This document shows, in pieces, positions 10,904 through 47,569 of a stretch of DNA of 64,000 nucleotides. The notes beneath the pieces were generated by a model that was given only the letters and a program-made list of their open reading frames with translations, had not been told where the DNA came from and made no database searches. The stretch covers positions 66,602 to 130,601 of the forward strand of contig CALCNX010000049.1 of assembly GCA_937899715.1 (NCBI GenBank). The letters are read 5' to 3'. The translations under genes were made by a program, and so were the position numbers. Positions within the stretch are counted from its first letter, which is position 1; each line of letters opens with the position of its first letter. This DNA is from an uncultured bacterium. Lineage in GTDB: Bacteria > Bacteroidota > Ignavibacteria > Kapaibacteriales > UBA4661.

Positions 10904-12247
10904 ATGAGCTTTGTTCGATGTATTCTTGTCGTGCTTGCTGTGGGGATTATGTTGTTTAGCACCGCTTTTGCTCAAAGCCCGGACTCCCTCCTGCAATCCG
11001 GTCCAATGCTCGGTTACGCGCAAATGCGTGAAGTTGCTCTTTGGGTGCAGACGAAGCAATCTGCTCGCGTAAAATTTGTCTATTACGAAACCACCAATGC
11101 TTCCGTCCGCCATGAAACGGACGAAGTAGTAACAATGAAAAATGATGCCTACACCGCTCATCTCATCGCCACCGAACTAGAACCGGGACGCAAATATACT
11201 TACGAACTCTTCATCAATGGTAAAAAGGTGAATCGTCCCTATCCTCTGGAATTTCAAACACTCAAGCTCTGGCAGTGGCGCGGTGATCCGCCTACCTTCA
11301 AGATTGCTTTGGGAAGCTGCACCTACGTCAATCAGCCTCCATATGAACGTCCTGACCGCCTCTATGGTAGCGACTATGAGATTTTCAAGGCTTTGCACAG
11401 CAAACGCCCCGACGCAATGCTCTGGCTCGGTGATAATGTCTATACCCGCGAAGTAGATTGGAGCTCGCGCTCCGGTGTTCTGAAGCGTTATACACACACG
11501 CGCTCTTTGCCCGATATGCAGCCGTTTCTTGCTTCTACACACAACTACGCGATTTTGGATGACCATGATTATGGTCCCAATGATGCCGACCGCTCATTCT
11601 GGGGCAAAGACTATACAATGGATGCTTTTAAGCTCTTTTGGGCGAATCCAAGTTATGGGGTGATGGGCAAAACAAGTTGCGTGACACAGTTCGAGTGGGG
11701 CGACGCAGAATTTTTCTTTTTGGACAACCGCACATTTCGCTCGCCCAACAACCGTAAAACAGGCACTCGTGAGATGCTCAGTGATTGGCAAGTGCAATGG
11801 CTTATTGATGCACTCGTGACGAGCCGCGCAACGTTCAAGATTGTGGCTGTCGGCGGTCAAGTATTGAACCCGCTTCCAGTCTATGAAAATTATTCAACGT
11901 ATCCCGACGAGCGCCAGAAAGTTTTGGATTTGATTGAGAAGGAGGGCATCAAGGGCGTGATTTTTGTAACGGGAGACCGTCATCATACGGAACTGAATAA
12001 ATTGGAGCGAAAAGGTACATACCCGCTTTACGATTTTACAATTTCCTCCCTTACGGCGGGTACAAACCCCGGCGCTGCGAACGAAGCAAATCCCTTGCGC
12101 GTCCCGGGCACATTCACGGCTGAACATAATTTTGCCGTATTCGAGTTTAGCGGTGCACTCAAAGACCGAACGCTCAAATGCAGTGTCTATAATCCAACGG
12201 GGAAGGAAATTTGGACATATAGCATCAACAGCAAAGACCTTCGATAA
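10904..12247 (+). CDS. PhoD-like alkaline phosphatase / metallophosphoesterase
   Basis: Signal peptide. Calcineurin-like metallophosphatase motifs (ILDDHDYGPND, GDNVY, GDRHH) in the PhoD arrangement. Confidence 0.7.
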   Translation: MSFVRCILVVLAVGIMLFSTAFAQSPDSLLQSGPMLGYAQMREVALWVQTKQSARVKFVYYETTNASVRHETDEVVTMKNDAYTAHLIATELEPGRKYTYELFINGKKVNRPYPLEFQTLKLWQWRGDPPTFKIALGSCTYVNQPPYERPDRLYGSDYEIFKALHSKRPDAMLWLGDNVYTREVDWSSRSGVLKRYTHTRSLPDMQPFLASTHNYAILDDHDYGPNDADRSFWGKDYTMDAFKLFWANPSYGVMGKTSCVTQFEWGDAEFFFLDNRTFRSPNNRKTGTREMLSDWQVQWLIDALVTSRATFKIVAVGGQVLNPLPVYENYSTYPDERQKVLDLIEKEGIKGVIFVTGDRHHTELNKLERKGTYPLYDFTISSLTAGTNPGAANEANPLRVPGTFTAEHNFAVFEFSGALKDRTLKCSVYNPTGKEIWTYSINSKDLR

Positions 12248-19108: not shown

Positions 19109-19198
19109 TTTGGACGGGCAAGAATGAGAATAATTTCTCCGTGAATTAAAAAAATTAAAAACCCTTTGTGTGTTTCAATCATTTCTACTCGTATTTCC

Positions 19199-20560
19199 AT
19201 GAAAAACTCTATCCGCATCGCTTCAGGACAAGGTTTCTGGGGAGACTTGCTTTCTGCGCCACTCGCTCAGGTGAGCCGGGGCAACATTGATTATCTGATG
19301 ATGGACTACCTCGCCGAAGTAACGATGTCCATCATGCAAAAACAAAAACTCAAAAACCCTGCACTCGGCTACGCAAAAGACTTAGTGGAGGTCTGCGAGG
19401 AAATTTTGCCGCACCTCGTCAAGCACAACATCAAACTCATCACTAACGGTGGCGGTGTGAATCCGCTTGCTGCGCGTGATGCAATTTTTGCCGTTGCTCG
19501 CAAGCTCGGCATTACCGGCTTGAAAATTGGTGTGGTGATGGGTGATAACATCCTCACTAAGATTGATGATTTCGTGGCGGACGGGCACGCAATGAACCAT
19601 ATGGAAACTGGGCAGCCGATTGCGGAAGTGAAAGATAAACTCCTCAGTGCAAACGTCTATTTGGGCGCGTTCCCGATTGTGGAGGCATTGAAGCAGGGTG
19701 CAGATATTGTTATTACCGGGCGCACGACCGACACCGGACTCACACTTGCGCCGATGATTCACGAATTCGGCTGGAGCGCGGACGATTGGGACAAACTCTC
19801 GGCGGGCACAGTTGCGGGGCACATCAACGAATGTGGTGCACAAGCGACGGGTGGCAATTTCCTCGGCGACTGGCGCAGTCTGCCGGACATGGCAAATGTG
19901 GGCTTCCCGATTATTGAAGCATTTCCGAACGGTGAATTTATCGTGACCAAGCACGACGACACGGGCGGGCGCGTCAGCCGCGAAACCGTCAGCGAGCAGC
20001 TCTTGTACGAAATCGGCGACCCTACGGAATACATCACGCCGGATGTGGTGGCAGACTTCACGAGTATTCGACTGGAAGATGTCGGCAAAGACCGTGTGCG
20101 CGTTTTTGGTATTACAGGCAAGCCAAGTACGCCATTTCTCAAGGTCTCGGCAAGCTATGCCGACGGTTACTTGGCATTTAGTTCTCTCACATACTCCGCA
20201 CCGGACGCGCTCGAAAAGGCGCAAATGGGCGATAAAATCTTGCGTACACGGCTTTTGGACAATCTAAAACTGCAATTTGACGAAATTCGCACGGAGTTTA
20301 TCGGCATGAATGCGTGTCACGGCGGCATTGCCAAAGCAATTGAGCCAAACGAAGTAATGATGCGCATTGGGGTTCGTTCACGCGACTTCAAAGCAGTGGA
20401 GCGCTTTGGCAAGGAAATCGCACCACTCATTCTGACGGGACCACCATCGGTAACAGGCTTTGCAGGCGGTCGCCCGAAGCCGAGCGAGGTCGTAGCATAT
20501 TTTCCAGCGCTTATCAAAAAAGAAGTCATTCAGCCGGAAGTGATTGTCGAAGAGGTGTAG
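19199..20560 (+). CDS. DUF1446 / AtuA-like family protein
   Basis: From ATG 19199: MKNSIRIASGQGFWGDL..., the conserved N-terminus of acyclic-terpene-utilisation AtuA-like proteins. About 450 aa, the typical length. Assignment from memory of the family signature. Confidence 0.5.
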   Translation: MKNSIRIASGQGFWGDLLSAPLAQVSRGNIDYLMMDYLAEVTMSIMQKQKLKNPALGYAKDLVEVCEEILPHLVKHNIKLITNGGGVNPLAARDAIFAVARKLGITGLKIGVVMGDNILTKIDDFVADGHAMNHMETGQPIAEVKDKLLSANVYLGAFPIVEALKQGADIVITGRTTDTGLTLAPMIHEFGWSADDWDKLSAGTVAGHINECGAQATGGNFLGDWRSLPDMANVGFPIIEAFPNGEFIVTKHDDTGGRVSRETVSEQLLYEIGDPTEYITPDVVADFTSIRLEDVGKDRVRVFGITGKPSTPFLKVSASYADGYLAFSSLTYSAPDALEKAQMGDKILRTRLLDNLKLQFDEIRTEFIGMNACHGGIAKAIEPNEVMMRIGVRSRDFKAVERFGKEIAPLILTGPPSVTGFAGGRPKPSEVVAYFPALIKKEVIQPEVIVEEV

Positions 20561-22667: not shown

Positions 22668-23384
22668 TCACGAGTAAAGATACCGTAAAAGCCGACGCTT
22701 GGCAACTGGTAGAATAGTCTCATGGAATGGAAACTCTAGGTCGGTTTCAAAAGAGTATGTTGCAGGATTCGGAAGGTCTGGAAATTCTTGTACCAAGTCC
22801 AGTTTAATATTTTGTGCGGGCTGCATAATTGTAGTCTGACGAAGCGATTTGATGACCGATGTTTTCAGGCTGCGGTAACGCTCACCGGCACCGCTAAAAA
22901 TGGACACCTCATACTTGATGAGATGCAGTACCGATGCGGTGTTATCGGGAATAAACAAATAACCTTCTTCCAGATACGACGGAAGTATGCCCACGATTTC
23001 AAGCGCGAGGTTCTCGTCCACAAACTCAAACATGGTCTTCCCTTCCTCAATAGCATCCTGAATATGCGGCAAAGACCACAATATGAGATCGCGTATTTGC
23101 TCGAAGTCGTCGTCGCTAATAGGTGTTTCTTCGTAAATAATTTTTCGTTCTTTGAGATTAAGATCTTTGATGCTGCGGTGCGCTTTCAAGCGAAGGTTAT
23201 CAGCGCTATTGGTGATAGCCTGTAGTGTGTTGAATAGCTCAATAAGCGCATTGAGGTCTGGGAAAATTCTGTTGTGCTGAAAATTTGTCCGTATTGTTTT
23301 TAATCCGTTCAGAATTTCAAAGCGAGTGCGCTCGGTATCGTAAACGGCATTAACGAAAGTGTTGATAGAAAGTGCGGGTAACAT
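22668..23384 (-). CDS. Hypothetical protein
   Basis: 238-aa ORF. No family recognised. Confidence 0.45.
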   Translation of the reverse strand: MLPALSINTFVNAVYDTERTRFEILNGLKTIRTNFQHNRIFPDLNALIELFNTLQAITNSADNLRLKAHRSIKDLNLKERKIIYEETPISDDDFEQIRDLILWSLPHIQDAIEEGKTMFEFVDENLALEIVGILPSYLEEGYLFIPDNTASVLHLIKYEVSIFSGAGERYRSLKTSVIKSLRQTTIMQPAQNIKLDLVQEFPDLPNPATYSFETDLEFPFHETILPVAKRRLLRYLYS

Positions 23385-23823
23385 AGCGGTATCTCCTTGA
23401 GAAAACTAAACTTGGTCTATGAGCTAGAAAGTACGGAAGGGTAAAATTGGGAAAACAAAACAGCGCTCGCTATCAATCGGACTGTGCATGGTTAACAATA
23501 TAAAAGACAGGAAATCAATAGCAAACAAAAAAAGCCGCTTTATTATGCAGCTTCTGAACAAATTATGCGAATACCGATCTGTTTTTTCGCAGATCGTCCT
23601 CTCTTACTCCCTTTCGAGTACTTGATTGTCTTTTTCGTCTTACGCTTTCCGAAGCCTAGAAAGGGCTGAAGAAATTTGTCAGATGGTATTTTCCTTGCGC
23701 TCCACAGCTGTTCTGTGGATTATCGTTCTGTCACCAGAAAGGGAATAATTTCTTACTTCCGAGATTATCTCAAAGGATAATTATGGCGACTGTCTCTCTT
23801 TGACCCCCAAAGTGTCTCATAAT

Positions 23824-23866
23824 AAAAAAGCCTGAAGCATACATTTATGCATCAGGCTTTTTATTT
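23824..23866. terminator. Bidirectional rho-independent terminator
   Basis: aataaaaaaGCCTGAAGCATacatttATGCATCAGGCtttttatttg is a GC-rich hairpin flanked by A-run and T-run. Confidence 0.6.
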
Positions 23867-24260
23867 GTTCAATGGTGCCAGATTCCGATACCCGAAGTGT
23901 GGCGTATTTCTTACACTGTCAGAATAATACCTCAGTCGGTGTAGAAACTGCTGGAGAGTTAGTCTTTGCGTGTGCCGCTGGAACCGAAGTTCCATTGCGT
24001 GCAGCACACAACGCGCTGGGAGCCAGAAACCCGCAATTTTAGTGTTTTTGGCGTTACCGACGACTTTTGTGCGGGTTCGGAATTGCTTTGGAAGCCGCTT
24101 TCGGGCTGGCTTGAATATGTATCGCTTGTATTGGTTGACAGCGAGCGATAGGACGATGAATCCATAGAGACGTTTTTCAAATGACGGTTGTAAAGTAAAC
24201 AAAAAAGGTAAACTGTTGTAAACCCTGCCCGTACATTTGAACAAATAGCGTGCCGAATTA

Positions 24261-25994
24261 TCAAGCAGGCGTTTTGGTCAAAATAAAATCGCCAATCACC
24301 AACGCATCCAACCCCGTTGAGAAAAAGCAGCGGAGCGCATCCTGCGGTGTACACACTGTCGGCTCGCCTTGCACATTGAAGGATGTATTGATGAGAATTC
24401 CATAACCAGTGCGCTTCTCGAACTCGTCCAGCAGCGTCCAGAAAAGCGGGTTAGCTTCTCGCGTAACGCGCTGTGTCCGTGCCGTGCCATCCACGTGGAC
24501 GCACGAAGGAACGCTGGAGCGTTCCGCCTCAGCAAAGGGGAGCGCGACGACCATAAACGGCGAATCCTTACCGCTTGGAATAAAGCGTTCATAACTTTCT
24601 GCTTTGATTGACGGACAGAATGGTCGCCATGTCTCGCGGTGTTTCACTTCGAGATTCAGTTTATCTTTCATGTCAGGAAAAATTGGGCTTGCCAAGATAG
24701 ACCGCGCACCCAATGACCGTGCGCCAACCTCCATCGAACCCTGCATCCAGCCGATAATTTTTCCATCAGCCAGCATTTGTGCTGCTTCCGAGGCGATGTT
24801 ATCGCTTTTACGGTAGTGCGCCTTTGCATTTTTTAGCACCGTCTCAATAGCATCATTGGAATAGCTGGGACCCCAGTAGGAATGTGCCATTGTGAAGCGT
24901 GGATTGTCGCCAGCGTCTTGCGCTCCAAGCAATGCCGCTCCCAGCGAAACGCCGTTATCTGTGGCGGCGGGCTGCACAAAGAGGTTTTTCACAACATCCA
25001 TTTGGGCAATTTTGCCATTCAAAGCGCAGTTCATTGCCACACCACCTGCCATGCAGAGATTTTCTGAACCCGTCAGTTTGTGCAAACGCTTCACTAAGCC
25101 CATCACCACTTGCTCCAAACGCCACTGCACGGCAAAAGCAATATCCGCATAATTCCCCTCCAAAGCAGACTGGTTACGGCTTCTGGGCTTGCCGAAGATT
25201 TCGACAAACTCGTCCGTGAAGCGCCGTCCGTACTTGTGGGTGCCGATAAAGCGCAAATACGGGTTGATAGCATAATGCCCTGTTTCTGGGTCGAAAGACA
25301 GCATTTTGTCCAATTTGTCTTGCAAGTCTTGGTCGTACTTGCCGTAGGAAGCCAAGCCCGTTACTTTCCCTTCGTCCATGTAAGGCTGAAAACCTAAAAA
25401 CTCTGTGAAGGTAGCATACAAGCCGCCAAGCGTGTGCGGGAGCTTGTAGGTATCCACGACTTCAATACCGTTTTTCGTACCTTTAGCCAGCATGGTGCAT
25501 ATTTCCTCACCGGAACCGTCAAGGCTGATAATATTTGCTTCCTCGAAGCCTGACGCAAAAAATGCCGATGCCACGTGCGAAAGGTGATGCGAGTAGTATT
25601 TAATCGGCGGCACAGTATTGGTCGGCGAGAGCGAGCGCAAGCCCAGATGAAGACTTTGCTCAATGCGGTCGGGATGATACAGATTCAAGCGATATGATTG
25701 CTGGAGTTTGTTGTAGGCGTGCGTGTCGGGATATTTGGTGTGTTGCTCTTCGTAGAAAACCGGAGCTTGCAGGCTATAGCGCGTACAGTCCCAACCGTAG
25801 GCGATTTGGTCAATATCATCAAGATTAACATTTGCTTTTTCAAGGCAAAACCGTGCGGCTTTGAAGGGAAAATCATTAGGCGAGGTCTTGATGCGATTAA
25901 AACGCTCTTCCTCTGCCCAAGCCACCAATTTGCCGTCAATGACAAGCGCAGCGCTGGGATTAGGTCCGGGGGCAAACATACCGAGAATTTTCAT
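24261..25994 (-). CDS. NodU/CmcH-family carbamoyltransferase
   Basis: MKILGMFAPGPNPSAALVIDGKLVAWAEEERFNRIK... is the Kae1/YrdC-like carbamoyltransferase N-domain. The C-terminal domain and ~577 aa are typical of O-carbamoyltransferases. Confidence 0.8.
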   Translation of the reverse strand: MKILGMFAPGPNPSAALVIDGKLVAWAEEERFNRIKTSPNDFPFKAARFCLEKANVNLDDIDQIAYGWDCTRYSLQAPVFYEEQHTKYPDTHAYNKLQQSYRLNLYHPDRIEQSLHLGLRSLSPTNTVPPIKYYSHHLSHVASAFFASGFEEANIISLDGSGEEICTMLAKGTKNGIEVVDTYKLPHTLGGLYATFTEFLGFQPYMDEGKVTGLASYGKYDQDLQDKLDKMLSFDPETGHYAINPYLRFIGTHKYGRRFTDEFVEIFGKPRSRNQSALEGNYADIAFAVQWRLEQVVMGLVKRLHKLTGSENLCMAGGVAMNCALNGKIAQMDVVKNLFVQPAATDNGVSLGAALLGAQDAGDNPRFTMAHSYWGPSYSNDAIETVLKNAKAHYRKSDNIASEAAQMLADGKIIGWMQGSMEVGARSLGARSILASPIFPDMKDKLNLEVKHRETWRPFCPSIKAESYERFIPSGKDSPFMVVALPFAEAERSSVPSCVHVDGTARTQRVTREANPLFWTLLDEFEKRTGYGILINTSFNVQGEPTVCTPQDALRCFFSTGLDALVIGDFILTKTPA

Positions 25995-26033
25995 AAAGTT
26001 CGTAATGGGTTGAATGAAGAAAGTAAGCTGTGT

Positions 26034-26462
26034 TTACCGCATACCTTTGAGTGTCATTTGTGCTTTGATAGGATGCGCAGGATTGACAACCAATTTTTGC
26101 TGGTTAAGGTCTATAATTAAATCCATATCTTCGATGGGAATAGCGCCGAGCAAGCATTCGGCATCCCCCGGCACAACAACGGCTCGTACCGTTGTTTCGC
26201 GGTTTGCAAATCGTATATCCACCGGACCGACAACATCCGCCTCAAAGACCGTGCCGTCGGCAAGAGTAGCGGTGCGCTGTTCGAGGGTTTTCAATTTGAG
26301 TTGCTCTCGAACCGTTTCGTTGATAACAAGTGTGATTGCTCCTGTATCCACAAGCGTTTGTACTTTCATGCGGCGTATCTGCTTGCGTTTGATACGACCT
26401 TCATCAAAAGCGAAAATGTCTGCTGTGCGGATAAGTTCAATTTCTGTACGCAATAGTCCCAT
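26034..26462 (-). CDS. Retropepsin-like (clan AA) aspartic protease
   Basis: 142 aa with VDTGA (LVDTGAITLVINETV) catalytic Asp-Thr-Gly-Ala. The size is typical of bacterial retropepsin-like proteases. Confidence 0.65.
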   Translation of the reverse strand: MGLLRTEIELIRTADIFAFDEGRIKRKQIRRMKVQTLVDTGAITLVINETVREQLKLKTLEQRTATLADGTVFEADVVGPVDIRFANRETTVRAVVVPGDAECLLGAIPIEDMDLIIDLNQQKLVVNPAHPIKAQMTLKGMR

Positions 26463-26491
26463 GAAGCCTCCAAGGGCAAATGGAAGTGAAA

Positions 26492-27886
26492 TTAAAGAAT
26501 CACGCCGCTCGAATTGACGACGCTGACCGTACCAAAATTACGCAATTTTTGTTGTAAATGCTCAACATTCCCCGAAGCGGCAATGACAACGCCTTCAGTG
26601 CTAAAGCGGCGTTGCTGGACTTCAAAAAGGCGCTCCTTCGTCATGGAGGCAAGTTCGGCGAGGTATCGGGCGTGATAATCCTTTGGCAACCCGTATAACT
26701 CCAATGTACTCAGGAGAGAAACTACTTGGGTGGGAGTTTCGGTGCGGAGCGCGAAGGAACCAATCATATATTTGCGTGTGGTCTCAAGCTCGTCGTCAGT
26801 AATGGGTTCAGTGCGCAGGCGCTCCATTTCGCGCAAAATCTCGCCGACGGCGCTTTCGACGACATCACTTCCCACGTGTGAACTGACGATGAGTACGCTG
26901 CTATGCTTGCGAGCGTCTATGCTGCTTTGAACGCCGTAGGTGTAACCTTTTTCCTCGCGAAGATTGTGATTGAGCCGCGAGATAAAGCTCCCGCCAAAAA
27001 TGGTATTGAGGAATTGCATCGGTATAAAATCCGCATCTGCGCGATTGGCAGTACGGAATCCAAGACGAAGTGAGGTCTGAGCGGAGTCAGGTTTTTCGAT
27101 GAGCATGACCTTGGTCGCTTGTTTGCCTGGCTCTTGGTTACTTGGAATTCGTAATTTATGATTTGTGCTTTCTGCTGTCCCATCATTCGTCATTCGTACT
27201 TCCAGCTCCTTCGCAAGGTTGTCCACATCAAATTTTCCTGCCGCAGCAATAAAGAGATTGCTTGGTTGCAAGCTGCGTTTGTAAGCTCTCTGGCAGTCTG
27301 CTTGCTGAAGGTTGGCAATAGTTTCAAGCGTTCCGACGACAGGATGCCCATATTTCTCGCCGCGAAACATTCCCTGTGTAAAGGCAATGGAGGACAGGTA
27401 TGCCGCATCATTGTTGGCTTGTTCGATTTCGACAATCGTTTGCTGGCGTGTGCGCTCAATTTCCTCCGGTGGAAAGCTGGGATACCGCACCACATCGGTC
27501 AGCAAATCAAGTCCGGTCTCGGTAAAATCGGACAAAATGCTCAGATGCGCCGAAAGTGAATCAAACACGCAGGACACCGAAAGCGAGCCACCAGTGAAAT
27601 CTATTTCCTCTGCGAGAGCCTGCGCGTCGCGGGTGCGTTCGTCCGATTGTGTTCCTTTGTTCATCAGCGATGCCATGAAGTTTGTTGCACCCCATAGCTC
27701 TTCGTCCGCCGCCCCGCTTCGAGAGACAATACTCATGGTGAGAAGAGGCTGCGAAGAGTCCTCCACAGCAATCAAAGTTATGCCATTTGCAAGGGTAATT
27801 TCTTTATGTGCTGCCAAGGTGAATGTCGTCGGAGTCTCAATAATGGGCGGTTTGGTGAGCATTATGTACGGGAAAAGTATAGCCAA
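26492..27886 (-). CDS. M16 (pitrilysin/insulinase) family protein lacking the HxxEH zinc-binding motif (non-catalytic type)
   Basis: M16 N- and C-domain architecture. At the position of the HxxEH inverted zincin motif it has NFMASL, so it is probably the inactive partner type. Confidence 0.7.
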   Translation of the reverse strand: MAILFPYIMLTKPPIIETPTTFTLAAHKEITLANGITLIAVEDSSQPLLTMSIVSRSGAADEELWGATNFMASLMNKGTQSDERTRDAQALAEEIDFTGGSLSVSCVFDSLSAHLSILSDFTETGLDLLTDVVRYPSFPPEEIERTRQQTIVEIEQANNDAAYLSSIAFTQGMFRGEKYGHPVVGTLETIANLQQADCQRAYKRSLQPSNLFIAAAGKFDVDNLAKELEVRMTNDGTAESTNHKLRIPSNQEPGKQATKVMLIEKPDSAQTSLRLGFRTANRADADFIPMQFLNTIFGGSFISRLNHNLREEKGYTYGVQSSIDARKHSSVLIVSSHVGSDVVESAVGEILREMERLRTEPITDDELETTRKYMIGSFALRTETPTQVVSLLSTLELYGLPKDYHARYLAELASMTKERLFEVQQRRFSTEGVVIAASGNVEHLQQKLRNFGTVSVVNSSGVIL

Positions 27887-27995
27887 AGAGTCTATGGATT
27901 ATTACAAAAGTACATTTTTTTTTCGATGTTGTAAAAAAGTTCTTGACTTTTGCAGCAATGTATCGTATTTTTGTTTTCTGTTTTTCAATAAACAC

Positions 27996-28069
27996 TCCGA
28001 AGTAGCTCAGTTGGTTAGAGCATCTGACTGTTAATCAGAGGGTCGTAGGTTCAAGTCCTACCTTCGGAG
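27996..28069 (+). tRNA. tRNA-Asn (anticodon GTT)
   Basis: The cloverleaf was folded by hand. Acceptor TCCGAAG/CTTCGGA. D-arm GCTC-AGTTGGTTA-GAGC. Anticodon stem TCTGA/TCAGA with loop CTGTTAA. T-arm GTAGG-TTCAAGT-CCTAC. Discriminator G. Confidence 0.9.
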
Positions 28070-28085
28070 CAGAAAAGGTACAATA

Positions 28086-34619: not shown

Positions 34620-34748
34620 GTTTTGTGTAAACTTCCCTCACCCAACCCTCTCCCAGAGGGCGAGGGCTTCAGAATAAATTGATTGTTCTTGTCTTCGCTC
34701 CTTCTCCCTCTGGGAGAAGGCGGGGGATGAGGGCTGTTTACACAAAAC
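34620..34748. repeat. Imperfect ~47-bp inverted repeat pair separated by 33 bp (MITE-like or structured-RNA-like)
   Basis: Left gttttgtgtaaacttccctcacccaaccctctcccagagggcgaggg. The reverse complement of the right arm is gttttgtgtaaacagccctcatcccccgccttctcccagagggagaagg, about 80% identical. Confidence 0.55.
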
Positions 34749-34812: not shown

Positions 34813-34949
34813 GTGTGTCAGAACAAAGTGTCAGATTTTTTCTTGCACACTGTCAGAAAAATCTGACACTTTTTATGGGAGTAGCTGTGGAAAATGTCTT
34901 AAAAGTGTCAGATTTTCTGCCCAATCATGCCCAAAAGTGTCAGGTTTTT
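34813..34949. promoter_or_regulatory. Array of five GTGTCAGA(T/A)TTTT motifs including a perfect 18-bp palindrome TGTCAGAAAAATCTGACA, a candidate regulator binding-site cluster upstream of the giant gene
   Basis: Sites at 34813, 34826, 34850-34867 (palindrome), 34903 and 34936. Confidence 0.45.
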
Positions 34950-34953
34950 CTTC

Positions 34954-35008
34954 TGGCACATCCTTTGTAATAGTCTCCTCTGGATAAAAGAATGCACCAA
35001 GGGCAGGG
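34954..35008 (+). promoter_or_regulatory. Two weak sigma-54-like -24/-12 candidates (TGGCAC-N5-TTGT at 34954-34968, TGGATA-N5-ATGCA at 34991-35006)
   Basis: The first matches the full -24 hexamer but has GT instead of GC at -12. The second obeys GG-N10-GC. Neither is a perfect consensus. Confidence 0.2.
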
Positions 35009-35184: not shown

Positions 35185-38100
35185 ATGAATTTTGTACTAG
35201 CACAATTGCGTCGCTCCACAAGCGCTTTGCTTGTTGCGTTGACTGCATTTCTTTTGGTAGCCCCTGCTTTGGTCTATGCGCAGTCAACTGCGGATTCCCA
35301 AGTTCAGGGCGAGAGCCGAGATTTCCGCTCGACTCGTAACGGTCGTTGGGTGGACTTGTCCACATGGCAAGTCTATCGCTCAGGCGTCTGGATTGCCGCC
35401 GGACGTGAAGTTGGTGTGCCTAACGGCGCGAGTAACGTTTTCATCGAAACAAACCACACCATTGTGGCTACCCGCGCTGTGCAGGAAGCTATCCAATGGA
35501 ACGGTGCGCAAGCATGGGCGTTCCTCGAGGTAAATAACCTGCATATTAACACTGCTGCGTCTATCACGACGACCTTCGGCAGTTCCAGTATCTCAGGTTT
35601 TACCTATGATGCTCTTGGTAACAACCTCGACCGTTATGACGGCGATGGTAATAGCCGCGCTGCTGTTCTCGGTGGTTCACCGAACTTAGGCAGTGTGAGC
35701 ACATCATTGAGCCAGTTCTCTCCGGTTGCCGGCGGTGTTAATCCGCTTCCCGGTGGTACACTTGGTGGTTACCCGTTCAACCGTATCGGTAACATGGACG
35801 TGTTCTCACCCCAGAACTTTTTGCTTGAGCCGTCGGGTGGACAAGTTCCTACCCCTCGCAACATGGAGTTGCGCGTGTATGGTAAACTCCGCTATTATAC
35901 TGGTAGGGCGTTCGACAAAACCGACCGCTCTGCGAATATCCAAGTGACTGCTGCTACTATCGGTACTGGTTCGACTATTGTTTTCCGCGGTATAACTCGT
36001 ACGATTACATCTCCGGAAGAATGGTCAACCACACTTGCTACACAAACAGGTCGTTTCGACAACACAGCACAAACTGCTGCGTTAGGTTCTGCTGGTACAG
36101 CTGGTGGTTTCGGTTTGCGTTTTGATGACGGTTCGGGTAATGCCGCAGCTGTTAGCCAGGCGCGTATCAATAACTTCCGTGGCTTGATGGGACGTAACTC
36201 GTTCTGGACAGCTGTGTTCGACCTTGGTCGTGTTGTTGACCGTAACTTCTCTGTTGACCAGTTCACTGGTCCGACAGACGATCCTTCGACTGCTATTGGT
36301 ACTCTTCGTGGTAACTTTACCGCAGGTATCATTCAGGTTCGTCGTGGTACAGTTCGTTTTGAAGGTCAGGCGCTTCTTGCAAACGAAGGTGCTCCTACGT
36401 CTGGTTCTATCCAGATTATGAACAACGCTGTTTTGCAAGTTGCTTCTGGTAATATCGGTCGTACTGCTGTGAATCTTTCGCAGTTTGGTAGCCGTTTTGG
36501 TGGTACCTCAACGATTGACCTTTATGGTAGTGGTAATCCTTACCAGCCTGTTCAAACAGACTTGACAGGTAATCCTAATGGTGGTGCTACTCGCGCAGGC
36601 TACTTCTCGCAAACTCCGTCGGGTACATATGGGGTAACTTCCCGTATGCGCTACTTCGTAGTTGAAGAAGGTGGCGCTCTTGATTTCGTTGGCGCTGTTG
36701 GTTCACTTAGTGCTGCTGACGTTCGCTTCAACGGTACGGTTATCTATTCACGTACAGGCGATCAAACGCTTGTTGGTGATTCCCCATTCTTGTCGTTTAA
36801 CCCTGCAGGCACAATCGTCGGTGGCGCTGCTGCTGGTGGCGTTACACTTAATGGTACTGGCGCTGCTGCTGGTACTGGTGGTGTTACCATTAATGCAGGT
36901 GAAAATGGCTTGTTTGACCCGTACAATAATAACTATAATGCTAATGCTGGTGTAACTGCTGCAGGTACTACATGGGCGGGTGATCCTCGTCCGGGTACTA
37001 TTAATGACTTCGGTACAGCTCCATCCGGTCTTGGTGTAGGTACGGCTGCTCTCTTCCAACCTTCCACGACGGCTGCTTACAGCCACCTCGTGTTGCGCGG
37101 TACAGGCACCAAATTCCTCATTGCTACGACTGTAACAATCTCACGCGCGCTCATCTTCCAAGGTGAAGCACGTATGGGCATCCAAAACGTAGCGGGCGAC
37201 GGTACTGTTATCACCATCAACGGTGCTAACCTTGCATCAGGTCTTCCATACTACTTGCAACAGCCTATCGCAGGCGAGTTGGTTGCTAATGACCCTGTAA
37301 GCGGTCGCACGGTTTCACGTGCCGGCTACTTCCCGACATTGGTATATCTTCGTGGTACAGGTTTGACCGGTTTCCGCCAGGAAAACAATATCGGTACAAC
37401 ATTCCGTGGTACGCTTTCAACCGCTACGACTCACACTGAAGCGGATAGCGATCCCGTCAGTGGCGCTCAAGCACAAACGATGTGGTCGGTTTACGGTGGC
37501 AACACTGACCCGGTTATCTTCGTAGGCTTCACGACCGCTTCTACCCGTCCTATCATCTACGATCAGGATATGTACCCAGAAGGTGCTTCCTATCCTATCG
37601 GTATGGTGCTTGCTGGTTCTTTGAACCGTGAGCAGCTTGACATGAGCCCATGGAACAAGCCTGGTGTTGTTCACGGCTTGCCTGCTGAACCGTCATACGA
37701 CGGTAATACTACCGCTATCGGTGATGGACACGGTTCTTCATTCCGTGGTTACACATATACGTCCACAACCCGCTCGCAAACACTTGACGGTGTTCGCACC
37801 GGTCAGGTTATTCGTCAAACTGTTGACCGTGTAAACGGTACCGGCAGCCCGATGACCTTCCCGACCGTTGGTATTGCTAACGTTGCCGGTGTTAACGGTG
37901 GTAACATCATCCGTAACTTCCCGGTTATCACCAATAGCATCCATGACTACGCTATCAATACAAGCGCAACCACAACGTTGCAGTATGACAGCGAAGCGTC
38001 CGATATTATGTCGCAGATTGAGTTCCCGGCTGGTGTAACAGGTCCTCACAACCTTGTGATGAACTGCGCATCGAACGTATCACAAACTCTGCCGATTCGT

Positions 38101-41100
38101 ACCGTTGACTACCGTGGTTTCGACCAATCTGGTATCAACTGGGCTAACGTTGCTGAATTGAACTTCATCAACAAAACCTCAGGTTTGTTCGGTGCTACCG
38201 CAGGTACGATTGTTCTTGGTCCGGAGTATGTGAACTCCACCAATGCAAACTTGCCTCGTAACGCATTCAGCCCTTCGACTGGCTTGTATCAAGCAAGTGC
38301 TATTTACAACCAATCAGGCATCGGTTTGACAAACACGCCGGGCGTTTTGGCTTCAGCATATGTTGATACCCGCCCAGACGTTGCGATTACATCTGCAAAA
38401 ATCAATGACAACTATTATGTCACTGGTGTAGGTGTTCGTCCTTCGGTTTCTCTTACCGGTACCTTCGACGGTCGCGTTCGTGTTGGCTTCCCGACACAAC
38501 GTGTTGTTGGTCCGACCTACCTTAACGGTGGTCAAGCTGCGTATGTTGTTTCCGGTTGGAACAGCGGCGCTCTTCCGCTTGGTCAAAACTCACAAGGTCT
38601 TGCTCAAGACTTCGGTCGTCGTGGTGACTACAATAACTTCGGTGTTGTAGAGCTTCGTCGTGGTAACTTGAACATCCCGAATCGCAATCTTACGTTGAAT
38701 GTTGGTAGTGTTGCCGCTCCGGTAACAGGTACCTTCAACTACTTGTTCGTTCTTTCGTCAACAGCTATCGTCTCGCCTGACCAAGCAAACGTTACGTTCT
38801 TGGGTCAACGCGTAGGTGCTAACAATGCTGCGGCTCAAGTTGTTCTCTCTGAGGCTACTGGTGCTGAGCAATATCCGAGCTTCACCCAGTGGGCAGCAGC
38901 AGGCGTTCGTAACGCTGCGGCTAACCCTGGCGTAGCAGCTCCTGCTGTTATTCGTGGTCCTTCCGGTCCGGCAAACCTTGCTGGTACAATTGTTGGTGGT
39001 TCGCTCTCCAATATCGTCTTCACAGGCGGTACAGGTGGAACCATTGATGGTTCATTCCTTGCATCAGCTCGTAACGGTGGCAGCTCGTCTGTCAACGCAA
39101 CTGGCGCTGCAAATGCTACCTTCACCAACGGTAACGGTCCTCAGCCCGTACACTATGCTGCAACAGACAATGCGAACTCTGGTCTTACCGAGCTTTCGGT
39201 TGCTACCGGTATTCCTGGTCTGCAGGCATTCTCACCGAGCTATGTTCCAAGCATTACTGGTGTTCCGACATCAGCAGCTTCGAACCCATTCCCTAATACG
39301 GCAGTTTCCACCCATCGTTACAATGCAGGTCCTGAGATGACCAGCGATGCTGACGTTACGTTGGCTTCTATCGTTTACGGCGCAGATGCTATTTCTAACC
39401 AAACAGCTCTCGCTGCTGGTATTCAGTCCGGTAACAATCAGGTTTATCCTAACGGTCCGAGCTTGATTACCAATGCTGGTCACACTTCGTCATCATACAA
39501 TGCAGGTATTGTTCGTGCTAACAACGCATGGAACATTGACCTTCCATATGTACGCAGTGGTCTTCAGCACGTAACGTTCCTCCGCGCTACCTCGAACGTC
39601 ATGACGCTCGTTGGTAACTTGGACAACAGCACGAACAATCCTGGTGGCAGCCCGAACGGCATTGACGCACCGGGTCTTACGACTGCTAAACCGGAACTTT
39701 CCGGCTTGCAAGTGTACGGTACAATTGCAACCGCTCGCGGTGATATTGACCTTAACGGTCGTAACATCGAGCTTGGTGGCAACAACTCCATGCTTGTAGA
39801 AGCATTCGAGCGTACACAGTATGTTGACTCCATCGGTGGTCGTCCACGTTGGACAGCTATCCAAGTTGGTATGCCTCGTGGCTTCTCGAACGGTAACATC
39901 AACGGTATCGCTCCTGGTCAGTGGACAAATGGTGTTGTAACAGCACCGTACCGCACCGGCGATCCGCTTCCTGTTTACCCGACCCGTCCGTCATCGGTTA
40001 TCAACAACCACCGCGAAGTTCGCGCGTATATTGGTCTCACCTCTGGTCGTAACATCCAGCCGATGAACCAAAATCTTGGTATCAACCAAGTAAACGAGAA
40101 CCCCGCTGGTCTTGGCGCGTACATCTACCAAACAGCAAACCCGGCTCAGTTCCGTGTTCGTCGTTGGCAGACACGCGGTAACGGTCTTAATGGTGCGCTT
40201 TCGACCCGTCCGGGCGTTCGCACAGCTGACCGCTACTGGCAAGTAGAAACCACCGGCACCATGGCTGTTATCATGGGTCGCTCGGAGATCCGCCTGCAAT
40301 ACATCGATACCGACCTCAACAACGAGAACGGTACGACTTCAGGTCTTCCTCCGGCATCCTTGAATATGTTCCGTGCTCAAGGTCAACCGCTTATTGCTCC
40401 GAACTCACCGTTCATCGGTCCGTTCCAAGCACTCTTCGCTCAACAACTTGTTGGTTTGGATTCCTATAACTTCGTGAAAATGCTCACGATTACTGGCGAT
40501 CGTCAAACAGTAAACGGTGCAACCGTTCTCAACACTGGTAACTTTGCAACCGGTGATCCCGCAAGCGGTCGTTTGCCGGATGCAACCAACCCGCAAAACC
40601 CACAAGCTGGTTTCCAAATCTGGGCTATCGGTATTCCTGCTCCTCGTTGCTTGGTGCTTCGTGGTCAGCGCTTCGGCGGTACCTTCGGTGACCCAATTGG
40701 TAGCGGCTTTGGTGTAGCTGCTGGTCAAGATATTCTTGGCTTCCCGCCTCCATTCGGTTCATTCGCAACCGGCGGTGGTATCAGCACAGCTACTGCTAAT
40801 CAATTTGGTACCATCATCGGACCGTTCAAAGCAGGTTATGCTACGAACGCAACGATCGTTGCAGACCTTCTTGACGAGTTTGGTAACGTTGCTACGACGA
40901 ACTTCTCCACAGGCGCTTCGCTTGTAGTTGGTCAAGTAAGCAATGGTACTCTTGGTCCATGGAATACCGGTGTACCGGCTCTCTTCCAAGGCACAAATGG
41001 CTTCCCGTCAGGTCGCATTGGCGCACTTTCGGGTAATGGTGGCTTGACAGCAAACGCTACTACGGGTGGTCCCGTTGGTGGTCGCTTTGAGTGGCCGAAC

Positions 41101-44872: not shown

Positions 44873-46264
44873 TCAGTGCTCAATATTGTATTTCTCCAAC
44901 ATTCGGTAGAACGTAGCGCGCCCAATATCAAGTTTGTGTGCTGCTTCTTGGATATTACCGCCCGTGATTTCAAGAGCGATGCGAATTGCTTGCTCCTTGA
45001 TTTTGTCGAGCGGGAGTATGTTCCCGGAGGTAGCCGTAAAATGAATTTCTGCGGGTTTGTCACTGGGCGAGTCGGGGATTTCGGGTGTTCCGGCGAGCAA
45101 GTGTAACTCTTCTTCGGTAATAATTTTGGTCTCGCAAAGTACCACAGCGCGTTCTATGGTGTTCTCAAGTTCGCGGACGTTGCCTTGCCAGTGATAATGC
45201 GTGAGGATGCGCATTGCCTTTGGGCTGAAGCTCCGTGCGGGCTGGTCGTAGCGCATGGCGAATTTTTCGAGGAAATACTGCGCCAGTGCCGGAATGTCTT
45301 CAGTGCGTTCCCTGAGGGGTGGGAGTTTCACGGGAAAGGATGCAAGGCGATAGTACAAATCCTCGCGGAACGTGCCTTGCTTGATTGCGTCGTGTAGATT
45401 GCGGTGCGTTGCCGAGACAATGCGAATATCCACCGTGACGACTTCGCTGCCCCCAACGCGCTCAAACTGCTTCGTTTGCAAGACGCGCAGGAGCTTGGCT
45501 TGGAGGCTTAAATCTAATTCTCCAATTTCGTCCAAAAAGAGTGTGCCGCCGTTTGCTTGTTCAAACTTTCCAATTTTGCGTTGAATCGCGCCCGTGAATG
45601 CGCCGCGTTCATGCCCAAAGATTTCGCTTTCCAAAAGGTCTTTGGGGATAGAAGCACAGTTGAGTGCCACGAAGGGGGCGCTTGCACGCCGGGTGCCCTC
45701 GTGGAGCGCCTGCGCGATAAGCTCCTTGCCTGTGCCGGTTTCGCCCTGTATCAGCACGGCAATATCGGTGTTCTGTGCCTTCTTCACTAATTTGAAGACG
45801 CTTTGCATTGCATCACCAACCGAAATCATGTTTGCAAATTTTATGCGTTCGGTGGATTCTTCCGAGAGCTTGCGCACCTCGCCTGTTAGAGAGAACATCT
45901 GAATAGCATTGCGGGCAGTGATTTCGAGTTTGGTCAGGTCGAGTGGTTTTTGCAGATAGTCAAATGCACCCAACTTGATTGTTTCCACAGCCACCTCAAT
46001 GCGCCCTTGCCCGGAGAGCATTACTACGGGTGTTTCGGGGAATCGGGCTTTGCATTCTTTGAGAATTTCCACGCCGCTCATGCCCGGAAGCATAATGTCG
46101 AGCAGCACAAGCGACGGTGCGGCATTGATACCGTCCGGCGAAAGTTCTTTGAGAAAATCTTCGCCGCGTGTGAAGACGCGGACATTATAGCCAAAAGAGC
46201 TAAGATTATGCTCAAGAAGCAACTGCAAATTTGCTTCATCTTCGACGACGTACACAGTGTGCAT
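44873..46264 (-). CDS. Sigma-54-dependent response regulator (NtrC/Fis family: REC + AAA+ + Fis HTH)
   Basis: REC (VLLDIMLPGMSGVEIL, phospho-Asp). AAA+ Walker A GETGTGKE and the GAFTGA sigma-54 contact motif. C-terminal Fis-type HTH (ATFYRMLEKYNI). Confidence 0.9.
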   Translation of the reverse strand: MHTVYVVEDEANLQLLLEHNLSSFGYNVRVFTRGEDFLKELSPDGINAAPSLVLLDIMLPGMSGVEILKECKARFPETPVVMLSGQGRIEVAVETIKLGAFDYLQKPLDLTKLEITARNAIQMFSLTGEVRKLSEESTERIKFANMISVGDAMQSVFKLVKKAQNTDIAVLIQGETGTGKELIAQALHEGTRRASAPFVALNCASIPKDLLESEIFGHERGAFTGAIQRKIGKFEQANGGTLFLDEIGELDLSLQAKLLRVLQTKQFERVGGSEVVTVDIRIVSATHRNLHDAIKQGTFREDLYYRLASFPVKLPPLRERTEDIPALAQYFLEKFAMRYDQPARSFSPKAMRILTHYHWQGNVRELENTIERAVVLCETKIITEEELHLLAGTPEIPDSPSDKPAEIHFTATSGNILPLDKIKEQAIRIALEITGGNIQEAAHKLDIGRATFYRMLEKYNIEH

Positions 46265-46375: not shown

Positions 46376-47569
46376 TTATTCTATTGGCAGTCTAACTGTA
46401 AAGGTTGAACCTTTCCCCACAGTGCTTTCGGCACGGATACTCCCGCCGTGCAATTCCACAATTTGTTTTGCAATCGCAAGACCCAGCCCCGTACCGCGAA
46501 TTTCTTTACCCTCGGTGTCGCGCTGCTTGGCACGGTAAAATTTCTCGAAAAGACGTGGCAGGTCGCTTGCCGGGATGCCAACACCTGTATCGGCGATACT
46601 GATTTCTATGCGCTCTGCATTATGTACAACACTAATAGTAATCTTCCCGTCCTGCGGGGTGAACTTGACAGCATTGGCAAGAAGATTTACAAAGACTTGT
46701 GTGATACGGTCGTTGTCCAGAGCCAGAAAGGGCAGCGTCTCTGGCGAGTAATCGTGCACAATAGCAATGCGTTTCGATTCTGCTTCGGCGGCGATAATGT
46801 GAGCCGCATAGTCAAGAATCTGCCCAATAGATACGTGCTGTGTGATAAGCGACGTTTTGCCGCTTTCAATACGCGAAATATCCAGCAAATCTTCCACAAG
46901 CCGTTCCAAACGCCGCCCGTCATCCAGAATAATCGTCAGAAATTGCGTGGCTTTTTCCGGTGGGAGCTGCGGCGAACGCAGAAGTGTTTGTGCAAAGCCG
47001 ATGATGGAAGCAAGTGGCGTGCGGAGTTCGTGGGAGACCTGAGAAACGAATTCATTTTTCATGTCATTGAGCTTATGCAGTGCCTCTGCGTGCTGCCGCT
47101 CACGGTCTCGCTCAAATTCCATACGTTTGATGGCGGTAATATCGCGCCCTTCCACGATAAAGAAATCTATTTCCCCGGCGGAGCTAAAAATGGGCTTTAT
47201 AGAAAGGTCAACCACAGCCCGTGTGCCTTCCAGATTGACGATTTCGCCAGTATAGCGCACAAATTCGCCACCAGAAGCGCGGTAGAGTCCTGTTTGGAGT
47301 TTGGAGCGAGCGGCTTCGTCTGCCCAACATTCTAAGTCCCACAGCGTTTTGCCGAGTGCTTCGGGCGCGGCAACGCCAGTGAAATTGACGGCTGCTTGGT
47401 TAATTTCTAAAATAACGCCGTCAACACTCACCAGAAAAATGAACTGGAAGGTATTGTGAAAAATAGCTTGAAAACGTTTGCGGAGGTCTGTTTCTGTGGG
47501 TGCGTCGTGAAGCGCCATCGTGCCTACGTCATCGTGTAAGAAAGCGGTTTCTAGGCGGCAAGATAGCAT
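46376..47569 (-). CDS. Cytoplasmic PAS-domain sensor histidine kinase (NtrB-like), partner of the adjacent sigma-54 activator
   Basis: No TM. PAS region. H-box VSHELRTPLASIIGF. HATPase_c G-boxes (IADTGVGIP, GTGLGLAIAKQIVELHGG). Confidence 0.85.
   Translation of the reverse strand: MLSCRLETAFLHDDVGTMALHDAPTETDLRKRFQAIFHNTFQFIFLVSVDGVILEINQAAVNFTGVAAPEALGKTLWDLECWADEAARSKLQTGLYRASGGEFVRYTGEIVNLEGTRAVVDLSIKPIFSSAGEIDFFIVEGRDITAIKRMEFERDRERQHAEALHKLNDMKNEFVSQVSHELRTPLASIIGFAQTLLRSPQLPPEKATQFLTIILDDGRRLERLVEDLLDISRIESGKTSLITQHVSIGQILDYAAHIIAAEAESKRIAIVHDYSPETLPFLALDNDRITQVFVNLLANAVKFTPQDGKITISVVHNAERIEISIADTGVGIPASDLPRLFEKFYRAKQRDTEGKEIRGTGLGLAIAKQIVELHGGSIRAESTVGKGSTFTVRLPIE

Follow-up and report, generated by a model that had tools for sequence, protein, structure and literature searches.

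A conserved 68-codon gene with a putative sigma-54-type promoter, and its probably independent neighbours, in a Kapaibacterium-like lineage

The inactive subunit of the Sphingomonas sp. A1 M16B peptidase is encoded beside, and works with, a catalytic subunit carrying the HxxEH motif; for the TIGR03698 subfamily of retropepsin-like clan AA aspartic proteases, we know of no established function. Relatives of both, together with a carbamoyltransferase (CT) of the TobZ/NodU/CmcH family and an open reading frame (ORF) of 68 codons (orf68, the ‘small gene’), are encoded on the minus strand of a 64,000-nt stretch of DNA from an uncultured bacterium (contig CALCNX010000049.1; hereafter ‘the window’, whose positions supply all coordinates unless a locus is named). 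The four ORFs run at 27886-26492, 26462-26034, 25994-24261 and 24165-23959, with gaps of 29, 39 and 95 bp, just as the original prediction had described them; its further proposal, of a single processed-peptide pathway in which two proteases and a hydroxyl-modifying enzyme act on a Ser/Thr-rich peptide, is unsupported, and synteny of the genes varies among relatives.

Taking the comparative evidence together, we think it probable that these genes constitute three functionally separate units, adjacent only in one narrow Kapaibacterium-like lineage, with orf68 as an autonomous cassette. The first unit would be the pair formed by the M16 protein and the retropepsin-like protease, beside a tRNA-Asn gene; the second would be the CT, which appears to have landed behind that pair in this lineage and whose transcription probably continues from the M16 promoter. 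The third would be the 68-codon gene itself, a cassette whose sigma-54-type promoter lies 5 nt past the CT stop, followed by a 5' untranslated region (UTR) of roughly 60 nt that would begin at a conserved GCAGGG, and then by the ORF. We propose that TGTCAG and TGTCTC sites on either side of the small gene's own terminator bind a sigma-54 enhancer-binding protein, which would activate the promoter from downstream by DNA looping, and that the same activator may drive a giant gene at 35185 whose product ends in a sorting tail of the type IX secretion system (T9SS). The features concerned are as follows.

24241..24255, minus strand: sigma-54-type promoter CGGCACGCTATTTGT (-24 GG, -12 TG), proposed from the cross-lineage alignment
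24223..24228, minus strand: GCAGGG box, predicted transcription start region, from the same alignment
23959..24165, minus strand: gene for the 68-aa small protein (homologues, dN/dS, open frame)
23876..23922, strand-neutral: 3'-UTR stretch with TGTCAG and a degenerate TGCCAG
23824..23862, minus strand: intrinsic terminator, bidirectional by sequence (A-run, hairpin, T-run)
23791..23818, strand-neutral: two TGTCTC sites just past the terminator
34816..34969, plus strand: six-copy TGTCAG array with a sigma-54-type promoter, TGGCACATCCTTTGTA

The window was compared with 30 further loci (L001-L030; 258 kb), making 322 kb altogether. One of these, L007 (GCA_044227435.1), is from the same species as the window, with a CT that is 99% identical; CT homologues at 81-82% identity come from sources named Candidatus Kapaibacterium sp. 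or ‘Bacteroidota bacterium’. Loci L022-L025, which carry the small gene, come from Kapaibacterium or ‘Ignavibacteria bacterium’ metagenome-assembled genomes.

The small ORF had been suspected of being real, and by its homologues and pattern of substitution it is a genuine, conserved protein-coding gene. A phmmer search over 1.84 billion representatives returned four clusters of 68-69-aa homologues at 51-64% identity, to which a profile search and a genome scan added others; the ATG-GAT start and the length of 68-69 codons are kept in ten loci from six lineages, with only an in-frame indel. Residues 1-39 are variable and rich in Ser, Thr and Gln, while residues 40-64 are conserved, with the pattern KTLKLRVSGSQRVVC..W.FG..G and, within the conserved C-terminal half, the peptide VVCCTQWNFGSSGTR. 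The ratio of non-synonymous to synonymous change (dN/dS) is 0.10-0.24 over the conserved C-terminal stretch and 0.2-0.67 over the N-terminal one; by codon position, the differences number 260/213/353, and synonymous swaps in the conserved part include Ser TCC/AGC, Leu CTA/TTA/CTC/TTG and Arg CGG/CGA/CGT. Set against its overlapping frames, the annotated one alone among the six stays open in all five lineages tested, the competitors (a 127-aa ORF at 23861-24244 and several plus-strand ORFs) being broken in other lineages; the ORF thus combines a frame kept across lineages with purifying selection.

The only structured element that AlphaFold2 predicts from an eight-sequence alignment is a beta-hairpin spanning residues 40-55 (pLDDT about 77), the rest being disordered; with a mean pLDDT of 56, the model is too weak to support a fold search. 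In the explanation that we favour, the product is a small cytoplasmic protein whose N-terminus is disordered and Ser/Thr-rich and whose C-terminus carries the conserved beta-hairpin; it would most likely act in a regulatory or adaptor capacity, and would not be acted upon by the enzymes encoded next to it. No family in Pfam, NCBIfam, PADLOC or PHROGs matches it, and a few of its relatives are named ‘hypothetical protein’ by their sources, the others being unnamed in the sources searched; the gene belongs to a Kapabacteria-specific small-protein family that is under clear coding selection and has no match in the family databases. Non-coding candidates were also considered for the 400 nt from the CT stop to the terminator: at Rfam gathering thresholds the only match in the window is the tRNA-Asn, a permissive Rfam scan of 23380-24300 gave nothing beyond sub-threshold chance matches, and ARAGORN found no transfer-messenger RNA (tmRNA).

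What surrounds the small gene changes from lineage to lineage. In the window clade and in L019/L020 it follows the CT, in L021, L024 and L025 it follows CcmE, and in L030 DinB; downstream stands DUF2237, DUF3098 or a 238-aa protein without a family match. Neither CT, M16 nor aspartic protease is found within the flank examined in L021, L024, L025 and L030 (approximately 8 kb per side in L025, 6 kb in L030 and less than 1 kb downstream in L024 and L021), so that, over that span, the co-occurrence of the small ORF with the three larger genes breaks down where it follows CcmE or DinB. The DNA upstream of the gene is unalignable between lineages except for one promoter block, which reads:

Window: CGGCACGCTATTTGT, at 24255-24241, beginning 5 nt after the CT stop
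L009: CGGCACGTTATTTGC
L019: CGGCACGCTATTTGC
L021/L024/L025: TGGCATGGTAATTGA
L030: TGGCACATCGTTTGC, a perfect sigma-54 consensus

The conserved element is YGGCAYG-N4-TTG, of which GGCA(C/T)-N5/6-TTG is invariant at the same columns in all small-gene lineages, and L030 carries a perfect TGGCACatcgtTTGC. In every lineage a GCAGGG box, likewise invariant, starts at a distance of exactly 13 nt from the end of the block (the -12 element), and would mark the place where a sigma-54 transcript starts. The case for a sigma-54 promoter is made because this arrangement is conserved across lineages, and not by the match in the window alone. A Bacteroidota sigma-A promoter (TAnnTTTG) was considered for the small gene and set aside in favour of the sigma-54 element, since lineages do not carry it consistently. 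As for the machinery, an NtrC-type activator with a Sigma54_activat domain is encoded at 44873-46264 and a histidine kinase at 46376-47569; rpoN is not in the window. At the other end, the strong terminator that had been called downstream of the ORF is borne out by a hairpin at 23862-23824 (-20.8 kcal/mol, z = -4.3), in whose place other lineages have a hairpin with different stem sequences. With its own putative promoter and predicted terminator, the small gene appears to be an autonomous unit.

Two further stretches of the window deserve a word here. A sigma-54-like promoter, TGGCACAACCTTTGGA (one mismatch), lies at 48031-48016 on the minus strand, with GAGACAC about 100 nt upstream, just ahead of the operon for the histidine kinase and NtrC-type activator (47569-44873); it is followed by about 330 nt without a long ORF, to about 47640, with terminator-like hairpins at about 47868-47832 and about 47712-47645, and the stretch 48031-47640 could be a sigma-54-dependent small RNA or leader. 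Between the small gene's terminator and the gene for the 238-aa protein, 23385-23823 (minus strand) amounts to about 440 nt without a convincing ORF, has a second terminator-like hairpin at 23555-23530, and is shared by the window with the 99%-identical L007 alone. The 238-aa protein (22668-23384, minus strand) has no match in Pfam, NCBIfam, PADLOC or PHROGs and, among the loci compared, is likewise confined to the window and L007.

Downstream of the ORF, the window has one exact TGTCAG (23917-23922, plus strand) and one TGCCAG (23876-23881), the latter being an exact TGTCAG in L007. TGTCTC follows twice, at plus-strand positions 23791-23796 and 23813-23818, reading ATGAGACAC...GAGAGACAG on the gene strand, and these sites are kept in L007, L009, L023, L021, L024 and L025, with one copy in L019. 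Perfect TGTCAG-N6-CTGACA palindromes occupy the 3' UTR in L019, L021, L024, L025 and L030. Elsewhere in the window, six copies of TGTCAG with similar flanks (34816-34943) lie directly upstream of the sigma-54-type promoter TGGCACATCCTTTGTA (34954-34969), which precedes a gene for a 2926-aa protein (35185-43965, plus strand) whose only domain match is a T9SS C-terminal sorting tail; this arrangement of promoter and array is conserved in L022 (1340-1531, reversed). The window holds 28 TGTCAG sites in total, and a single 200-nt bin accounts for 6 of these. Across the 322 kb, three or more sites cluster within 160 nt only at the 3' end of the small gene or at the giant-gene promoter. We infer from this distribution that TGTCAG may be the binding site of a sigma-54 activator common to the small gene and the giant gene. 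Upstream of the array, at 34630-34740 (plus strand), inverted G/C-rich repeats (ccctcacccaaccctctcccagagggcgagggc ... ccttctccctctgggagaaggcgggggatgagggc) resemble a small palindromic repeat element.

The remaining features belong to the other two units.

27996..28070, plus strand: tRNA-Asn (GTT), divergent from the M16 gene (Rfam, ARAGORN); conserved anchor of the M16 locus
27905..27912, minus strand: candidate promoter TACTTTTG, a match to TAnnTTTG, for M16, aspartic protease and CT
26492..27862, minus strand: non-catalytic M16B-type two-domain protein, 456 aa (Pfam, 3amj_B)
26034..26462, minus strand: retropepsin-like clan AA aspartic protease of the TIGR03698 subfamily, 142 aa, VDTGA
24261..25994, minus strand: TobZ/NodU/CmcH-family carbamoyltransferase, 577 aa

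The family assignments made at the outset all hold. The M16 protein has the family fold, with PF00675 at 44.9 bits (cutoff 22.3) and PF05193 at 92.2 bits (cutoff 23), and among solved structures it comes closest to 3amj_B, the ‘zinc peptidase inactive subunit’ (E=7.8e-35, residues 31-442); as had been noted, it is without the zinc ligands, NFMASL standing at the HxxEH position, and five orthologues read NFMASL, NLMTSL or NFMTTL there, also without HxxEH. Translation is likelier to begin at the ATG at 27862 (456 aa) than at the TTG at 27886 (464 aa), since that is where orthologues begin, as does the gene called in the 99%-identical assembly. A tblastn search with the M16 protein matches itself alone in the 64-kb window, with no catalytic HxxEH subunit encoded alongside in that span, and finds no second match in L009, L022, L023, L026 or L028. 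The YfmF and YfmH families (M16-like proteins associated with EF-P 5-aminopentanol modification) were tried and rejected, at 119.7 bits against a cutoff of 285 and 46.2 against 250, respectively. The 142-aa protein with VDTGA matches PF13975 and PF13650, and scores 67.2 bits against the TIGR03698 cutoff of 57.35; no solved structure for a member of this subfamily is detectable by sequence.

The protease is paired with an M16 orthologue in L022, L026/L027, L028 and one further contig. In L026/L027, L028 and that further contig the pair stands without the CT (M16 57-66%, protease 62-66% identity) and is followed by a MoxR-type AAA ATPase, in one contig after an inserted AAA/HNH gene pair. L009 and L023 have no protease, M16 leading directly to the CT across a gap of 38-50 bp, with a CT 94% identical to that of the window; a 53%-identical protease homologue stands alone in a 6.2-Mb genome (L029). 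In every lineage the M16 orthologue has a divergent tRNA-Asn beside it (L007, L009, L022, L023, L026 and L028). The conserved core is accordingly tRNA-Asn, non-catalytic M16 and, usually, aspartic protease; M16 with aspartic protease is the only association that recurs across lineages, yet it is dispensable, because two close relatives are without the protease.

Several observations bear on how this core has been rearranged. L009 and L023 share a near-identical M16-to-CT spacer (L009 1636-1673, L023 6087-6124; 1 base differs in the stretch shown) without the protease gene that the window has at 26034-26462; the M16 gene of L009 is 92%, and that of L023 81%, identical to the window's, and L022, with an M16 close to that of L023, keeps the protease, which suggests recombination within the M16-CT locus. 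The far side of the tRNA-Asn (27996-28070, plus strand) differs in every relative: a GAF-PP2C (SpoIIE-type) phosphatase in the window, a phage-type integrase with small genes in L007 (1-2885), restriction-modification genes in L028 (1-3417) and its sister contig, and the giant-gene promoter in L022 (1100-1690); it looks like an integration or rearrangement hot spot. Restriction-modification genes adjoin the pair in some loci, and a defence role for M16 and protease was considered and set aside, PADLOC giving only a weak match for the protease (E=0.0034).

The carbamoyltransferase carries both family domains (Carbam_trans_N 176.7 bits, Carbam_trans_C 221.5 bits), comprising a Kae1-like N-terminal and a YrdC-like C-terminal domain, and aligns end to end with TobZ (E=3e-99), with HHLSH for TobZ's HHLAH; NodU proper was rejected, at 145.4 bits against a cutoff of 1000 (NCBIfam NF041651). 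The prediction had looked for synteny of the three larger genes in relatives, and this is where it fails: orthologues at 73-90% identity lie in at least four other neighbourhoods, namely VWA/OmpA - CT - M50 (81%), CT - CcmD_alt (79%), GNAT - CT - enolase (73%) and M14 carboxypeptidase - CT - ribosomal protein S4, rpsD (82% and 90%), with neither M16 nor aspartic protease in any of the four, and the protease is missing from two relatives with 94%-identical CTs. By tblastn over the 30 loci (258 kb), the full set of M16, aspartic protease, CT and orf68 is confined to the window, L007 and L022; L009 and L023 have M16, CT and orf68 without the protease, and L001-L006, L008 and L010 have the CT without the small gene. 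The CT is a stand-alone enzyme of the TobZ/NodU type and a recent neighbour of the M16-protease core.

Co-transcription of the three larger genes, which the short gaps had been taken to imply, is plausible: no convincing internal terminator was found within the three-gene stretch, and TAnnTTTG, the Bacteroidota-type -7 promoter consensus, is matched upstream of M16. The candidate promoter TACTTTTG, which may serve M16, protease and CT alike, overlaps a sigma-70-like match at 27926-27898, and its tgtacttttg is also present in L022.

How do these data bear on other readings? That the four genes encode a single operon pathway, in which a peptide is proteolytically processed and O-carbamoylated in the manner of a glycoconjugate or of a ribosomally synthesised and post-translationally modified peptide (RiPP), has some surface appeal: the ORFs share a strand and lie close together, the peptide gene is real and its product rich in hydroxyls, its conserved internal stretch followed by 15 more variable C-terminal residues loosely resembles a recognition sequence and core, and L007 and L022 share the window's arrangement. 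A cluster of the RiPP-like or peptide-modifying kind should keep its precursor beside its enzymes, and the co-occurrence table shows otherwise, with the CT in four other contexts at 73-90% identity, the protease missing from L009 and L023 despite the CT and small gene there, and the small gene standing apart from all three within the flank examined in L021, L024, L025 and L030; given also a conserved sigma-54-type promoter of the small gene's own and an M16 protein without a catalytic motif, we regard such a pathway as highly improbable. Scarcely better placed, and very unlikely too, is the idea that what has been conserved is a small RNA of about 400 nt, dependent on sigma-54, with the 68-codon ORF incidental and untranslated. 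The long 5' UTR, structured 3' UTR and strong terminator would suit an RNA, as would the want of a clear ribosome-binding site in the window, a DNA identity (78%) above protein identity (63%) between close relatives, and dN/dS of up to 0.67 in the N-terminal half; yet frame, ATG-GAT start and 68-69-codon length persist through six lineages with only in-frame indels, every other frame is interrupted in at least one of the five lineages tested, the conserved part shows synonymous codon swaps and dN/dS of 0.10-0.24, and no Rfam family matches. A dual-function RNA, coding and with an RNA role besides, could still be specified by the small gene.

More weight attaches to two other proposals, each of which we nonetheless consider unlikely. 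The main alternative to our reading of the TGTCAG sites takes TGTCAG-N6-CTGACA as RNA hairpins of the 3' UTR, serving stability or protein binding, with the likeness to the array at 34816-34943 either coincidental or due to a different factor. It is in keeping with perfect palindromes inside the transcribed 3' UTR in L019, L021, L024, L025 and L030, and with a hairpin in the window and L009 that encloses CUGACA between differing flanking stems (GGUAUU...AAUACGCC versus GGCAUU...AUAUGCC). It does not readily account for the six similarly flanked copies of this hexamer (aaagTGTCAGatttt, cacTGTCAGaa) ahead of a second sigma-54-type promoter, where transcription is not expected, nor for the conservation of that array in L022, nor for the related TGTCTC sites past the terminator; moreover, the arms are conserved in sequence without covarying, and the window clade has lost one arm while keeping the CTGACA half-site. 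Slightly less probable again is the proposal of a two-protein peptidase in which the retropepsin-like protease would be the catalyst and the M16 protein, itself non-catalytic, would provide the substrate-binding chamber, with the CT as bystander. The pair recurs in at least four lineages beside tRNA-Asn, at 57-66% (M16) and 62-66% (protease) identity and with gaps of 29-73 bp, all M16 orthologues are without HxxEH, and no catalytic M16 partner is adjacent or in the window. Set against this, two close relatives kept M16 and lost the protease, one protease homologue, more distant, is found on its own, and the genome may have a gene for a catalytic M16 partner at some other place; a full-text search for retropepsin-like, bacterial and M16 gave no paper, and in the literature searched the pairing is not described. 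As a novelty, such a hybrid peptidase would come second to the sigma-54 cassette and its link to the giant gene, and is the less likely of the two.

The reading that we prefer, three separate units with orf68 as a sigma-54 cassette, has its own difficulties, which should be weighed against it. Sigma-54 dependence is proposed here from the sequence: at the -12 element the window has TTGT, and the L021 group ATTGA, where TTGC is canonical (its C varying as C, T or A), and the window's promoter match, with two mismatches, is by itself not statistically remarkable. The small gene is without a clear Shine-Dalgarno sequence in the window; one exact TGTCAG is accompanied there only by a TGCCAG and two TGTCTC, a small and partly degenerate set of enhancer-like sites, an enhancer downstream of its own gene is unusual, and the 3'-UTR palindromes could act as RNA hairpins instead. 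A functional link between M16, protease and CT may also exist in this lineage, where the genes are tightly packed.

Beyond this, we tentatively advance a more specific proposal: a self-contained sigma-54 cassette that has shifted among at least three genomic settings within Kapabacteria and belongs to the same activator regulon as the 2926-aa protein, which would be a T9SS-secreted surface protein. Were this so, the small protein would be a dedicated partner or regulator of the giant protein's production. The putative regulatory cassette is unusually complete and portable, and could help to define a sigma-54 regulon in an uncultured lineage; literature searches on Kapabacteria with sigma-54, and on sigma-54 with T9SS in Bacteroidetes, returned nothing relevant. 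For the three larger genes, the outcome is that they are ordinary members of known families (non-catalytic M16B type, TIGR03698 and TobZ/NodU type), with no carbamoylated-peptide pathway here, which removes a tempting but unsupported candidate. Neither lead, the small-protein family or the M16-protease pairing, touches a long-standing open question.

Elsewhere in the window, the region downstream is flanked by genes for an AtuA-family protein (19166-20560, plus strand) and a PafA-like alkaline phosphatase (22646-20721, minus strand), and a PhoD-like phosphatase lies at 10904-12247.

Finally, each unit can be placed beside its closest described counterpart. The window M16 protein resembles the inactive subunit Sph2682 of Sphingomonas sp. 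A1 (3amj chain B) in its two-domain M16 fold and want of HxxEH, the motif position reading GATNFMASLMNKGT in the former and GVASMTASLMDAGT in the latter; unlike the Sphingomonas pair, it has no second M16 gene within 64 kb, its recurring neighbour being the retropepsin-like protease. That protease, at about 140 aa, with its DTGA active-site motif and hydrophobic-hydrophobic-Gly motif (LLG), is like other TIGR03698 proteins. The CT shares with TobZ, NodU and CmcH (PDB 3ven and relatives) the HxxxH metal motif and aligned DGxGEE and AGGV motifs, and differs in lying outside any antibiotic or Nod-factor cluster, among neighbours that change from lineage to lineage. The small-gene cassette departs from NtrC/NifA-type regulation in that its sites lie downstream of the ORF, partly past the terminator and about 300-430 bp after the promoter, and in that the -12 C is not conserved; it agrees with that type of regulation in having a putative promoter of the GG-N10-(G)C type at a fixed distance from the gene, repeated or palindromic hexamer sites, and an NtrC-type activator in the window, with the corresponding sites of the giant gene in the classical upstream position.

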